This document shows positions 25,738-37,287 of a DNA stretch of 64,000 nucleotides, piece after piece; the first letter of the stretch is position 1, and every line of letters begins with the position of its first letter. Below the pieces are notes generated by a model, which saw only the letters and a program-made list of their open reading frames with translations, was not told the origin of the DNA and ran no database searches. The stretch is from Escherichia phage myPSH1131: sequence record MG983840.1. One strand, written 5' to 3'. The position numbers were made by a program, and so were the translations under genes.

Positions 25738-27582
25738 TTAGTGCGTATGCATCCAGTTAAGTCCAATCTGACAATCAGAGGCCAGAGGACATTCCATATT
25801 CAAATACTCACCAGCCTTCTTAACACAAAGCTCGGTGTGCTCTTTGAGTTTCTGTACATCGTTACGATTAACTGAGAACTGGCCCTCGTCGTGCATATCA
25901 ATTACCTTAGCACAACGAACTCCATCCTTCTCAATCCACTTGTTAAGGAACATCATAGCGTATTTCATAACAACAGCACCAGCACATTGCAGGAGAGTGT
26001 TAAGTGCTTTATGAACCATAACTTTACCAGTGGCATCTCGTCTCATTGTAATCTTACGACCATCAACACCAATCAAGTATCCTTGAGCAGCTTTCTCTGT
26101 CATACGATCAATGAGGATTGCAATACATGGGTTCTCTGCCAAGAAACGTGCTCGCATCACTGAACCTTCGTCAGCCCCACCACCTACAATTGAGCCAAGC
26201 TTAGCGTCGCCAGCACCGTAGTTGAATGCATAGATAAACGTTTTAGCATTGTCACGAGTAGGAAGACCAGCAAGTTTCTGGTTGTGGGAGTGGATATCAC
26301 CTTCAAGGAGAATATCACGATACATAATAGCAGAAGCTAAACCACGTTCTGCCAGAGCTTTCTTAGCTGGGTTGTTCTCTTCGATTGCCTCAGCAAGCAT
26401 ATCCCTACACTCTTTAATGAGGTAGTGAGCTAGCATACGAAGTTCAAGTCCAGAACCATCATACCCTAAGAATACTTCTTTGCCAGCGGGTATGTAATAT
26501 TTGTAAGCACCTATAGGTTTGTCTTTCTTCCCCGGCTTACCTTTCTCGTAAATTACGTTAGTACCTTTTCGTATATAACAACCATCAGGAACAACGTTAG
26601 TAATAACGAAAGGATGAGAATGATCACTGTCTGAGTTATAGTCAGACTCAAACAAACTGCGGCACTCGTGACCAAACAAACCACGGGAGGGAATATTAAC
26701 CACGATACGATGTTTGAATCGAAAAGTCGGCGTAGCGCAGCTGTTAGCTTCTGCCGAAAGTTTACCATCTTCGCGCTCCTTTGCTATGAGTCCACTGATA
26801 AGACCTAGCCTGTGAGCCGCTACAACGCGTCTCTTAAGCAAACTTCCGACACTCCCTAGCTCACCCCCTAACCCTTCTTCAAGGGTCTCCTCGAGGTTTG
26901 TAGGAGCTGTAGGCCACTTGTTTGATGTGGCTAGTGCTTTCTTAATCTCATCAAACGTTACAGGATTACGGCGATTAGGGTTTAATCCCAAACCAAATAC
27001 GTAAGCCTTCATATAATTCTTAGTTTTAAACCTGAAATGCTTTTCTAAGAACTTCTTAATATCAGCGTCAACCATCTCGGCTGTCTGCTTCTGCTTAGCA
27101 TTGCCTCGCATCCAAGCAGTATACCATGCTTGGTACGTTCCATACTTTCTCATATCTTTCTTGATTTCGAAAGTATTCCAAGGCTTCTTAGATACGTTAA
27201 ACTCTGGAGGAAGAAATCCCTCATCCATAAGAGCTTCTTTAACTCGTGCATCTTTCGATGGGTCAAAGTCTACGTATTCGACACAGGTGAAAGCTCCACC
27301 AATGTCTTCCCTCTTCAGCCCAACCCTATCACAATAGGCTTGAGGCCACTTCTGTAAAGCTCCAGACTTCTTAAACGGCTTCATATAAGTAGAGCCATCT
27401 AATCTCATCTTAGGTAAGAGAGGAATCAGTTCTTTGTCAATATTAACAATAATCTCTTTAAGGAGGTGAACATACCACCGAGCATTTCTTCGGTTGAAAC
27501 TCACTCCGTGCTTTGCTTGCTTAGAGATTATATCAGCGACAGTCATCTCTGTCAAAAATGGAAGAGCGTCCGGGTTGCTCAC
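25738..27582 (-). CDS. DNA polymerase, family A polymerase domain
   Basis: Motif A YDGSGLELRMLAHY, motif B RDNAKTFIYAFNYGAG, motif C VIDMHDEGQF; no 3'-5' exonuclease motifs in this ORF. Confidence 0.85.
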   Translation of the reverse strand: MSNPDALPFLTEMTVADIISKQAKHGVSFNRRNARWYVHLLKEIIVNIDKELIPLLPKMRLDGSTYMKPFKKSGALQKWPQAYCDRVGLKREDIGGAFTCVEYVDFDPSKDARVKEALMDEGFLPPEFNVSKKPWNTFEIKKDMRKYGTYQAWYTAWMRGNAKQKQTAEMVDADIKKFLEKHFRFKTKNYMKAYVFGLGLNPNRRNPVTFDEIKKALATSNKWPTAPTNLEETLEEGLGGELGSVGSLLKRRVVAAHRLGLISGLIAKEREDGKLSAEANSCATPTFRFKHRIVVNIPSRGLFGHECRSLFESDYNSDSDHSHPFVITNVVPDGCYIRKGTNVIYEKGKPGKKDKPIGAYKYYIPAGKEVFLGYDGSGLELRMLAHYLIKECRDMLAEAIEENNPAKKALAERGLASAIMYRDILLEGDIHSHNQKLAGLPTRDNAKTFIYAFNYGAGDAKLGSIVGGGADEGSVMRARFLAENPCIAILIDRMTEKAAQGYLIGVDGRKITMRRDATGKVMVHKALNTLLQCAGAVVMKYAMMFLNKWIEKDGVRCAKVIDMHDEGQFSVNRNDVQKLKEHTELCVKKAGEYLNMECPLASDCQIGLNWMHTH

Positions 27583-27598
27583 TTTATACTCCTTTAAA

Positions 27599-28021
27599 TT
27601 ATTGGTAAAGTAAATCTGTAAATGCTTGGTTATCTTCTACTACATTCAGCATGGTTGCTTCATCACTATAAGCCCTAACTGTCCCGTTGACAACTGTCCA
27701 AGGAGGGGGCGGAGGTGGTGTATGTGTAGCTCTGGCTTCACGAGGTTGTTCTCGTACCAGATGAGCCACAACCCTCTGATTAGCAACTTCTTCTCTTTCT
27801 CTAATAGCTCTCTGAATGTAGGCCAGCTTCATACCCCAAGCTTCTTCAAACTCTTGAGGGTGTTTATCACTGATAACCACATACTGACGTTCAGGAATAC
27901 CAGAGCGAATCTCTGATAATAATTCATGGAACAAATCTAGTTCATGTTCAGTGAGATTCATTTCGATATCATCCCACTTGAGAACTAAGAAACGGTTTTG
28001 GTGTCTAGCTGGTAATGGCAT
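27599..28021 (-). CDS. hypothetical protein (140 aa) with poly-Pro tract
   Basis: ORF directly upstream of the polymerase gene; no recognisable motifs. Confidence 0.35.
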   Translation of the reverse strand: MPLPARHQNRFLVLKWDDIEMNLTEHELDLFHELLSEIRSGIPERQYVVISDKHPQEFEEAWGMKLAYIQRAIREREEVANQRVVAHLVREQPREARATHTPPPPPPWTVVNGTVRAYSDEATMLNVVEDNQAFTDLLYQ

Positions 28022-28184
28022 CCTACTCCACCTCTACTTCAATGTAAGTTCTCTCACCGACGTCATCTTTTAAGACCCATGACTTGGCATCTTCTTCAGA
28101 CTTAAAAGCTTTCACAACGCTGTAACCACCTTCCCATTCATCACCGAACCAGCGCTGTCCTACGTAAATGTATTCTTTCATTAC

Positions 28185-35377: not shown

Positions 35378-36751
35378 TTAGTTATTTGTTTCCATGTCAA
35401 AAGAGATTCCACGACCCGCTTCATCGGCAAACCGAACTGTACGGGTTTGAGGTTCTAATACTTCAGGGTTGTTAGCAATAAAGCGATCAGCGAGACTGCG
35501 GCTGACAGCCTCAGCGAGTTCCTCATGAGAAGGAGTATCAAGATCGGAGAGACTGCCTACCACATCTTGGGCCACACCTTCATCAGTCCACACAGCCCTA
35601 ACAGGTGCGTTGATATCACCAACAGCAAAACCCTGACCAGAGAACTGACGTGCGCTAACAGTTAAGCCATTTGGTCGACCACGAGAGGGTCTAGCCATCC
35701 ATCGCTCCATAGAATCACTTGTAACACCAAGAGCTTCTTCAAAAGATGTTCTACGAGTAGTAGGTCTTATTCTTCGTGACTCTTGTGCTCGACGCATTGC
35801 AGGGGCTACAAACACCCCTTCAATTGCATTGTGTCGGTTAGGTTCTTCTTCCCGACCAAGTAGGTCGCCACCCGTGTTGGTTGTTAAGTTTGTCAACCCT
35901 TCAGACCAATACGCACTAATCTGACTAGATCCATGAACACTTGACATTAACTGGATTTCTTCATAAGGGATTCCAAATAATCGACTCATGTCACGATTAA
36001 CACAATACTGAGCACTTGTTGTATCCTCAATAAGAGCAACCTGACCTCGTTCGTTGACCAGATGATTAATCGGTTGAGGTGTGGGAAGATATCGAGTTTG
36101 GGCCATGTATTGATGTGCAGCTGCTGGAGAGGAAAATCTCAACACTTGCGAGTTAGGCCACTTCTTGTGAACATACCTGATTTCACGATTAGAAACAACC
36201 ACTGGACAAGGAGCGGTCATAGCCAAATATCCGTGAGAGGTCATGAATAAGTTGTCAAGAGTCATCGCACCACGGCACATCATAGGAAAATTATCCAATA
36301 CCTCTTCAATAGAAGTAGGATAATTAAACATGAATTGGATACGAACCCCATCCCACTGAAACTCAATAATATCAGTGAATGTTAATTGAGAACTCCCAGC
36401 ATAGGATTCGTTTGTAGCTTCAGCAAGAAGGGATGCATATTCAATATCTTGTGACTCTAACCATTCCTTCACATTACTTTCAATCTCTCTTCCAAGAGCT
36501 TGCCAACGATCAGTTGGGACGAAAGTATTTTGAGTTCTTGGTGTTTGTCCTCTGACAATAAAGATATCAATGTCATGTGGAGCTGTGTTATTAAGCACAG
36601 CATCACGAACAGCCCCACCAGTAATGATGGGACAGATACCGTCTGGAACTAAATTGTTGTTAATCAACTGTTCAATGAAGTGACGACCAACAGTGATATC
36701 AGGTTGTTGAGCAACCTTATCTTCAATTTGGTTAATCGGGATAACAATCAT
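35378..36751 (-). CDS. nucleotidyltransferase, poly(A)-polymerase/CCA-adding head domain family
   Basis: GGAVRDAVLNNTAPHDIDIF matches the GGxVRD...DxD head motif; start taken at MIVIPIN (ATG 36751), one base after the upstream stop; C-terminal half unassigned. Confidence 0.55.
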   Translation of the reverse strand: MIVIPINQIEDKVAQQPDITVGRHFIEQLINNNLVPDGICPIITGGAVRDAVLNNTAPHDIDIFIVRGQTPRTQNTFVPTDRWQALGREIESNVKEWLESQDIEYASLLAEATNESYAGSSQLTFTDIIEFQWDGVRIQFMFNYPTSIEEVLDNFPMMCRGAMTLDNLFMTSHGYLAMTAPCPVVVSNREIRYVHKKWPNSQVLRFSSPAAAHQYMAQTRYLPTPQPINHLVNERGQVALIEDTTSAQYCVNRDMSRLFGIPYEEIQLMSSVHGSSQISAYWSEGLTNLTTNTGGDLLGREEEPNRHNAIEGVFVAPAMRRAQESRRIRPTTRRTSFEEALGVTSDSMERWMARPSRGRPNGLTVSARQFSGQGFAVGDINAPVRAVWTDEGVAQDVVGSLSDLDTPSHEELAEAVSRSLADRFIANNPEVLEPQTRTVRFADEAGRGISFDMETNN

Positions 36752-36752
36752 T

Positions 36753-37247
36753 TTACATTTTCCAATATAATGAAGGTGGGTCGTAAGGGTCAAATCCCGT
36801 GAGTTCACACAAGAAAAGATAAACCTTAACAGTTAAGTTAACGTCCTGTTCACAATAAGTAAACATATCTTCAGTGAAAGCATCCCATGCTTCCTCTTGC
36901 TCACCATAATCGCCCTTAAGTTCTCCTAAGAACTCACCCCACTGCTTCAAACCATGACCCCTTGGGCCACGTCTAGGGTCGCCTTTCGGATACTCAGGAC
37001 TGTCACCAATACGGTCAGGTTTAAGATATCGACTAAGACATAAAGTGTCGAAGACGTTAAAACGATAGTTAATCAGATTGGGATACATCTTCTTCAGAGC
37101 ACAAAGGTCGAAGTCAATAATATTGTGACCCACCAGTACATCTGCTTCTGTAAGTTTACGAATCCCATCTTCAATTTGGTGAGGCCGATAGCCCCACCTT
37201 TCACCAGTTTCAACATCGAAGATATAAATACACCATACTAAAGTGCA
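36753..37247 (-). CDS. DnaQ-like 3'-5' exonuclease domain (DNA polymerase proofreading domain) as a separate ORF
   Basis: Exo I FDVETG, Exo [10 protein letters not shown], Exo III YCEQD; frame is open to 37247 but the only ATG/GTG/TTG start is GTG at 37133, downstream of Exo I. Confidence 0.55.
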
Positions 37248-37287
37248 TTACTCTCGATATCGAATGCAAACACTTTCTTCTTTTTCT

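Follow-up and report, generated by a model that had tools for sequence, protein, structure and literature searches.

A two-gene family A DNA polymerase of Kuravirus type in a phage sequence that is probably an artefactual mosaic

Introduction

The sequence record of Escherichia phage myPSH1131 (MG983840.1), of which a stretch of 64,000 nucleotides (nt) was analysed here and is referred to as the window, raises the question of whether a family A DNA polymerase can be carried on two distant genes, one for synthesis and one for proofreading, or whether its two parts have been separated by damage to the sequence. An initial annotation, made from the letters alone, had placed the polymerase domain in an open reading frame (ORF) at 25738-27582, a DnaQ-like exonuclease domain without a start codon in a separate ORF at 36753-37247, about 9 kilobases (kb) away, and a second, C-terminal-only polymerase fragment at 31428-31793. 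Here we compare these features with natural relatives and with the polymerase of phage T7, gp5. We consider it highly probable that the window holds the known two-polypeptide replicase of the Kuravirus phages, overlaid by an artefactual mosaic of several strains.

Results

The polymerase gene and the split in relatives

The polymerase ORF at 25738-27582 lies on the minus strand, which carries the genes in the examined part of the window, and is intact. It starts with GTG and encodes a DNA polymerase subunit of 614 amino acids (aa) that comprises the polymerase domain only. The protein matches the Pfam family DNA_pol_A (PF00476) with 82.6 bits against a gathering score of 34.3 (E=3.5e-23). Motif A (YDGSGLELR, residues 374-382, 26437-26463), motif B (RDNAKTFIYAFNYGAG, residues 443-458, 26209-26256) and motif C (HDEGQ, residues 564-568, 25879-25893) are all present in this single polypeptide and align to the motifs of T7 gp5, which makes it a family A member; the initial annotation had located this domain and its motifs exactly. 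The ORF aligns to the C-terminal part of gp5, from about residue 290 to the final residue, 704 (E=1e-32), with its residues 64-134 falling on gp5 290-356, and it begins at about the gp5 thumb region. The first 63 residues are too few to accommodate an exonuclease domain, and the fused architecture of gp5 is therefore absent. These 63 residues gave no significant match to T7 gp5 with phmmer, and their weak matches to SUMO were dismissed as chance. The Bas90 polymerase shares 99.3% aa identity with the 614-aa ORF, and the identical protein is encoded by a natural Logan contig (SRR14479767_355) that is 99.98% nt-identical to the window over 24381-29380.

When region 25000-38000 was compared with phage records, 99 matched, nearly all of them E. 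coli or Shigella phages of the phiEco32/SU10 (Kuravirus) group at 93-98% nt identity, and by its sequence the window is assigned to a Kuravirus (phiEco32/SU10/ES17-like) podophage of E. coli. We therefore asked how the polymerase is organised in SU10, Bas90 and 10 further natural loci, drawn from GenBank isolates, one ENA metagenome scaffold and Logan contigs. In SU10 and Bas90 the polymerase gene (614 aa) and a gene for a 185-aa exonuclease lie on the same strand about 8.7 kb apart, and both are annotated as polymerase genes. The ten further loci encode a helicase (596 aa), an exonuclease (184-185 aa, PF01612) and a nucleotidyltransferase, with the polymerase (602-614 aa, PF00476) beyond wherever the locus reaches that far. 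An exonuclease subunit of 184-185 aa is thus found between the primase/helicase and nucleotidyltransferase genes in all 12 natural relatives, and in the loci examined it always co-occurs with a polymerase that has no exonuclease domain. The order of the genes in the window (37288-38913, 36753-37294, 35378-36751 and 25738-27582) matches that of SU10, Bas90 and loci L008-L018, and is the gene order of a Kuravirus-type split PolA. The start of the exonuclease gene overlaps the stop of the helicase gene by 7 nt in every genome examined (37288-37294 in the window; L001, L002 and L008-L018). The 185-aa subunit of the relatives matches residues 3-178 of T7 gp5 (E=1.5e-12), and its FDIESNAL, HNIIDFD and YCEQD fall on Exo I, Exo II and Exo III of gp5, respectively; the alignment to an intact family A polymerase that the initial annotation had proposed accordingly places both pieces on matching parts of gp5.

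A tblastn search of 50,697 phage records with the exonuclease subunit returned 2,020 matching records, about 97 of them Kuravirus-like at at least 60% identity. Among the remaining matches listed, most were to fused T7-like polymerases, in their N-terminal exonuclease domain, and one was to a LUZ24-like phage whose annotation likewise includes an exonuclease subunit. Separate polymerase and exonuclease genes have been described for the LUZ24 group and for phiEco32 (PMC3517423), and, as cited there, the split was already remarked on in the phiEco32 genome paper of 2008. The separation of the two domains into distant ORFs, which the initial annotation had picked out, is therefore the arrangement of every natural relative examined, and the split polymerase of Kuravirus is real, conserved, already published and annotated in GenBank.

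The exonuclease gene

In the window the exonuclease-subunit gene is broken into two pieces, both on the minus strand. The 5' piece (37238-37294) is an 18-codon ORF that runs from a GTG at 37292-37294 to a premature TAG at 37238-37240 and includes the true Exo I motif, FDIESNAL, which falls on the Exo I residues D5/E7 of T7 gp5 when the two are aligned. The 3' piece (36753-37247) covers residues 25-185, in another frame, and has no usable start before a GTG at 37133. Alignment to relatives places a 16-nt deletion, together with one G>T change, between the two pieces at 37239-37240, by which codons 19-24 (YDDITK) are lost and the frame is shifted. The overlap of the GTG at 37294 with the helicase TAA (37288-37290) is intact, and the subunit that is 184-185 aa long in the relatives breaks off here after codon 18.

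The consequences for the 3' piece are clear from its motifs. Exo II (HNIIDFD, 37107-37127) and Exo III (YCEQD, 36843-36857) are the sole Exo motifs in frame 36753-37247, and the match to Pfam DNA_pol_A_exo1 (PF01612) is 22.5 bits, below the gathering score of 23.6. The window ORF thus lacks the combination expected of a DEDD/DnaQ-like exonuclease, with Exo I (DxE), II and III in one polypeptide and a profile match above threshold, whereas the intact orthologue SU10_075 scores 35.3 bits against the same gathering score and has all three motifs aligned to T7 gp5. The initial annotation had described 36753-37247 as an exonuclease ORF with all three motifs; the open frame, Exo II and Exo III stand, but Exo I lies upstream in the 18-codon ORF, and the stretch taken for it was probably FDVET (37206-37220), misassigned. 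It was also right that this frame has no start upstream of the supposed Exo I, as none precedes the GTG at 37133, but the true GTG exists in the other frame, and the ATG that had been pointed out near a TTTATAT run, although present at 37234-37236, is irrelevant to the start of the gene. A frameshift or sequence error had rightly been suspected at the 5' end, the cause being the 16-nt deletion after Exo I and not a missing start.

Residues 1-18 are identical to those of the ES17 and SU10 exonuclease subunits, residues 25-185 are 100% identical to the ES17 protein, and the DNA from 36753 to about 37650 is identical to ES17 (MN508615.2) apart from discrete insertions and deletions (indels) of 16, 5, 54 and 4 nt and the G>T beside the 16-nt deletion. 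Alignment to SU10 and Bas90 likewise has the window without 16 nt just after Exo I. These 16 nt are present in the full-length matches listed, each of which spans 157 nt for a 141-nt query (93 matching phage records, a comparison that leaves out one unlisted record at 90-95% identity), and the exact deletion junction had no match in IMG/VR. As judged from these alignments, the exonuclease start seems to be missing because 16 nt have been lost from a gene that otherwise equals that of ES17, and its absence is not a feature of the lineage.

An intact exonuclease could in principle still be produced by programmed ribosomal frameshifting, or from an unconventional start at the TTTATAT/ATG. The context of the premature stop, CTT TAG, bears a superficial likeness to the +1 frameshift site of prfB. 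However, restoring the exonuclease frame needs a -1 (or +2) shift and not +1, no slippery heptamer of the form X XXY YYZ is present at the break, and residues 19-24 would be lost even if frameshifting occurred. All 12 natural relatives, moreover, have a single uninterrupted ORF of 184-185 aa that includes the 16 nt. We find this alternative scarcely credible, and programmed frameshifting at CTT TAG was rejected on the grounds of its wrong direction, the lack of a slippery site and the unshifted relatives. The corrected state of the locus is two intact genes, and a contiguous exonuclease-polymerase ORF is not to be expected in a corrected sequence.

The stray polymerase fragment

The second polymerase sequence in the window (31428-31805, minus strand) corresponds to residues 490-614 and contains a 121-aa ORF, 31428-31793, that begins at an internal ATG. 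The ORF matches DNA_pol_A above threshold (51.1 bits, E=1.3e-13) over profile positions 274-380 only, and has motif C without motifs A and B, in agreement with its initial description as a C-terminal-only fragment. It shares 93.9% nt identity with the resident polymerase copy and 98.3% with Bas90. Comparison of the resident and stray 3' ends gives 21 codon differences, of which 19 are synonymous and two non-synonymous; this indicates that the fragment came from a functional polymerase gene of another strain and did not decay in place.

The fragment lies at the end of a composite inserted block of 2.26 kb (29547-31806), which repeats the region downstream of the polymerase together with the last 379 nt of the polymerase gene. 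Positions 29547-29938 of the block are SU10-like, 29938-30005 are a 68-nt snippet from elsewhere, 30006-30027 lie between the assigned segments, and 30028-31806 are Bas90-like, with 98.3% identity to Bas90 as against 90-94% to the resident copy. Next comes a patchwork spacer of 100 nt (31807-31906), assembled from 17-26-nt snippets of Bas90 44816-44933, a region otherwise deleted from the window. For the junction at 31806, none of 102 records covered at least 80% of a query spanning it and every listed match ended there; nor was an exact match to it found in JGI metagenome contigs or IMG/VR. Read from its sequence, the stray fragment is the end of a block from the polymerase region of another strain and not a relic of the resident gene.

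Interrupted polymerase genes do occur among the relatives. In L012 (ENA MUNK18 scaffold_20, 19207-19989) the gene is interrupted inside motif B, after ...FIYAFN, and in L018 (Logan DRR831849_1437, 18616-19241) it is interrupted inside the same motif five codons earlier (residue 449/450). The inserts are 630-780 nt long and contain an ORF of 174 or 144 aa, respectively, and the L012 insert matches the Rfam group I intron RF00028 with 50 bits (E=1.6e-11). No Pfam family was found for the two insert ORFs, and an HNH-like character is suggested by a xLDRxDxxKGYxxGNVxW motif only. The primase/helicase gene of L016 (5733-8143) and L018 (5667-8077) is split into pieces of 521 and 85 aa by a 111-aa HNH_3 ORF, which is another insertion of a mobile element in a replication gene.

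These interruptions raise the alternative that the stray fragment represents the second exon of a polymerase gene split by an intron, or was left behind by a homing-endonuclease event. However, its first residue is 490, which does not coincide with the 449/454 insertion site, the window already has a complete resident polymerase gene, and window region 24000-42000 contains no Rfam intron match at the gathering score. Its upstream neighbour is the 100-nt spacer, followed by a truncated PhoH gene. We regard this alternative as very improbable; the intron or exon-2 reading was rejected on the start residue, the complete resident gene and the lack of an Rfam intron.

Mosaic structure of the window

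The inserted block with its spacer is one of many such structures. When the window was mapped on Bas90, 54 high-scoring segment pairs were obtained, all 54 on the same strand, with repeated jumps backwards and forwards. Comparison of the window with itself revealed at least 10 diverged duplicated blocks, again on the same strand, with 87-96% identity and some in three copies. Examples are 4021-6709 with 11142-14221; 14949-17032 with 20757-22708 and 22806-24280; 35290-36872 with 39700-41222; 41691-43004 with 43117-44327 and 44429-45742; and 49317-50597 with 50697-51977. As a control, the natural genome of Bas90 compared with itself gave one 105-nt repeat only.

About ten junctions carry spacers of 98-104 nt (24281-24380, 31807-31906, 41223-41322, 43011-43114, 44328-44426, 46543-46640, 50598-50696, 52352-52451, 56399-56498 and 60428-60526), each pieced together from 15-35-nt snippets of Kuravirus sequence that lies nearby or has been deleted. 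Their near-constant length of about 100 nt looks non-biological, and resembles, for example, filled scaffold gaps or read-length units. Single blocks have near-exact natural counterparts (99-100% identity), for example in ES17, Logan SRR14479767 contigs and SRR23525277, and the natural contig L005, 99.98-100% identical to window blocks, is collinear at the site of the window's 3.7-kb duplicated insert and spacer. Among 50 reference genes of at least 250 nt each, about 14 are truncated in the window, including those for the primase/helicase, a 1473-aa virion protein, a tail protein and ThyX, and six are absent, including those for thioredoxin and a DNA-binding protein. The net length of the window is 64.0 kb, compared with 58.1 kb for the reference.

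Taken together, these features suggest that the window is a same-strand mosaic of Kuravirus strain blocks, small indels and patchwork spacers of about 100 nt rather than an intact phage genome, and it is most likely a non-viable mosaic produced as an assembly, scaffolding or synthetic artefact. It may have arisen by reference-guided scaffolding of contigs from mixed strains, by long-read haplotype duplication, or as synthetic or generated sequence; the uniform strand of all blocks argues against random ligation chimeras. Under such an origin, no phage mechanism would lie behind either the start-less exonuclease or the stray polymerase fragment.

Some observations weigh against our explanation. 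Non-homologous positions meet at blunt junctions, a pattern untypical of strain switching in a de Bruijn graph, and the duplicated blocks have the appearance of real alleles shaped by purifying selection. For the enzyme itself, no literature report of a physical association of exonuclease and polymerase in Kuravirus was found.

The window might instead be an authentic defective or rearranged Kuravirus that arose by recombination between co-infecting strains, with real duplications and a real exonuclease-null (mutator) allele. The duplicated blocks do look natural, with 19 synonymous against two non-synonymous differences in the polymerase fragment, and are 98-100% identical to known strains; homing endonucleases and introns in these phages promote exchange, and the excess of length (64.0 kb against 58.1 kb) is modest. 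Set against this, the essential genes for the primase/helicase, the 1473-aa virion protein and the tail protein are broken, about ten junctions carry nearly exact 100-nt spacers of scrambled snippets, and indels of 4-54 nt stand on a background of perfect ES17 identity without accompanying point divergence. The tested junctions were found in none of the database genomes or metagenomes searched, and the near-identical natural contig is collinear. An authentic rearranged phage is, in our judgement, distinctly unlikely.

Neighbouring genes and further features

The genes that flank the exonuclease gene carry lesions of their own. The primase/helicase gene (37288-38913, minus strand) is broken, with residues 1-55 and 157-596 present and residues 56-156 missing. 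It also carries an insertion of 4 nt, a deletion of 54 nt and a duplication of 5 nt on an otherwise ES17-identical background. The C-terminus of the helicase is acidic and ends in tryptophan. On the other side, a first copy of the nucleotidyltransferase gene (35378-36751, minus strand) directly follows the exonuclease ORF, as initially annotated. It is identified by a weak match to the Pfam PolyA_pol head domain and by synteny, and the block map gives it a chimeric 3' end; its exact protein is not on record. A second, ES17-like copy of this region (99.8%; 39661-41222, minus strand) comprises the 5' end of a dCTP-deaminase gene, a whole nucleotidyltransferase gene (39788-41101) and a 3' fragment of the exonuclease gene. 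This stray exonuclease fragment (residues 147-185, 41106-41222) mirrors the stray polymerase fragment and likewise has a spacer of about 100 nt next to it. The inserted block cuts off the PhoH-like gene (31876-32403, minus strand) at residue 166 of 245, the tail of its ORF runs into the spacer, and the exact product of this chimeric ORF is not on record.

Further oddities were seen elsewhere in the window. At 33796/33797 a blunt deletion of 1.66 kb relative to Bas90 (43470 to 45130) takes out the N-terminus of ThyX, the phage thioredoxin, the DNA-binding protein and one hypothetical gene. The genes for a 5'-3' exonuclease and a dNMP kinase are present in three full or partial copies from different strains (15330-17025, 21126-22701 and 22804-24279), and a GlmS-like gene contains a perfect 76-nt tandem duplication (48229-48304 and 48305-48380). 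On the plus strand, a 129-aa ORF at 12113-12502 encodes a Pfam Endonuclease_7 domain (E=1.4e-24). This ORF is situated between the two ejection-protein genes in their second copies, is found neither in the first copy of the ejection-protein region nor in Bas90, and probably encodes a strain-specific homing endonuclease.

Discussion

What remains of the locus once the mosaic is set aside is a replicase whose two activities are encoded about 8.7 kb apart. The 184-185-aa exonuclease, a DEDD 3'-5' enzyme, and the 614-aa polymerase together constitute a T7-gp5-like family A replicase on two polypeptides. Most probably the two subunits bind each other without a covalent link, giving a proofreading polymerase of gp5 type that cooperates with the primase/helicase, and the overlap of the exonuclease GTG with the helicase TAA by 7 nt suggests that translation of the exonuclease is probably coupled to that of the primase/helicase. 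We take the C-terminus of the Kuravirus helicase to recall the tail of T7 gp4 that binds gp5.

Gene fission of a T7-like PolA has been described in S-SBP1-like cyanophages, where the products are predicted to re-associate and can be superposed on an unsplit relative (PMC10201439, Czernecki et al. 2023). By analogy with T7 gp5 and with the AlphaFold complex of these split enzymes, non-covalent association of exonuclease and polymerase is most likely in Kuravirus also. Alternatively, the exonuclease subunit might not dock on the polymerase at all and might act in trans, or within a complex with the primase/helicase (or the nucleotidyltransferase) with which it is co-translated. The conservation in all loci of the 7-nt overlap with the helicase gene and of the tight packing with the nucleotidyltransferase gene fits such a role, as does the distance of about 8.7 kb from the polymerase gene. 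However, the subunit is homologous to the exonuclease domain of gp5 along its whole length, and every genome that has it also has a polymerase without an exonuclease domain. For another split T7-like PolA, modelling predicted that exonuclease and polymerase stay together in a complex, and the exonuclease domain is reported to be required for the stability of PolAs (PMC10201439). An undocked exonuclease is accordingly unlikely. We likewise allow a slim chance that the proofreader is delivered or held by the helicase or acts in trans, unlike in the T7 replisome, or, as a separate matter, that the window is a genuine multi-strain recombinant with an allele lacking Exo I. Were the helicase-held or trans-acting proofreader to be true, the architecture of this replisome would differ from that of T7.

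The biological weight of the locus is small, since the split was already known. The useful result is a negative one, namely that the start-less exonuclease and the stray polymerase fragment would both be symptoms of a corrupted mosaic sequence, and other oddities of the window, such as duplicated and truncated genes and fusion ORFs, are to be read as possible sequence corruption. The dispersed Kuravirus split itself would be a reasonable system in which to study the workings of a family A polymerase whose proofreading domain is detached.

The closest known systems are the split polymerases of phiEco32 and other Kuravirus phages (SU10_051 and SU10_075; Bas90_0046 and Bas90_0071; YF01 gp49 and gp70), which have the same genes in the same order and on the same strand as the window, at 93-100% nt identity, and in which the exonuclease gene of Bas90 is annotated as 'DNA polymerase exonuclease subunit'. 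The window differs from them by its own 16-nt deletion and by the extra polymerase 3' and exonuclease 3' fragments in blocks from foreign strains. In T7 gp5 (PDB 1T7P and 6N7W, among others) the Kuravirus exonuclease corresponds to residues 3-178 and the polymerase to residues of about 290-704, and a gp4-like primase/helicase is the partner in both systems. However, gp5 is one polypeptide whereas Kuravirus has two genes, and, unlike the T7 arrangement, a Kuravirus phage encodes its own thioredoxin, which is absent from the window. The LUZ24 group (Bruynoghevirus; PaP3, tf and KG853) also has polymerase and proofreading 3'-exonuclease on separate genes and has been compared explicitly with phiEco32 (PMC3517423), but it is a different lineage with a different gene neighbourhood and low sequence identity, the annotated 'exonuclease subunit' of KG853 being 34% identical to that of Kuravirus. 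In the S-SBP1-like cyanophages the fission separates exonuclease from polymerase as in Kuravirus, and a non-covalent complex is predicted (PMC10201439); there, however, the two genes are adjacent and were split recently by a 1-nt frameshift, whereas the Kuravirus genes are dispersed, with about 25 genes between them.

Division of labour of this kind is familiar from E. coli DNA polymerase III (Pol III), in which the polymerase (alpha, DnaE) and the DEDD proofreading activity (epsilon, DnaQ) reside on separate, non-covalently bound subunits encoded at distant loci. Pol III belongs to family C and not to family A, and its likeness to the Kuravirus enzyme is a functional analogy only.

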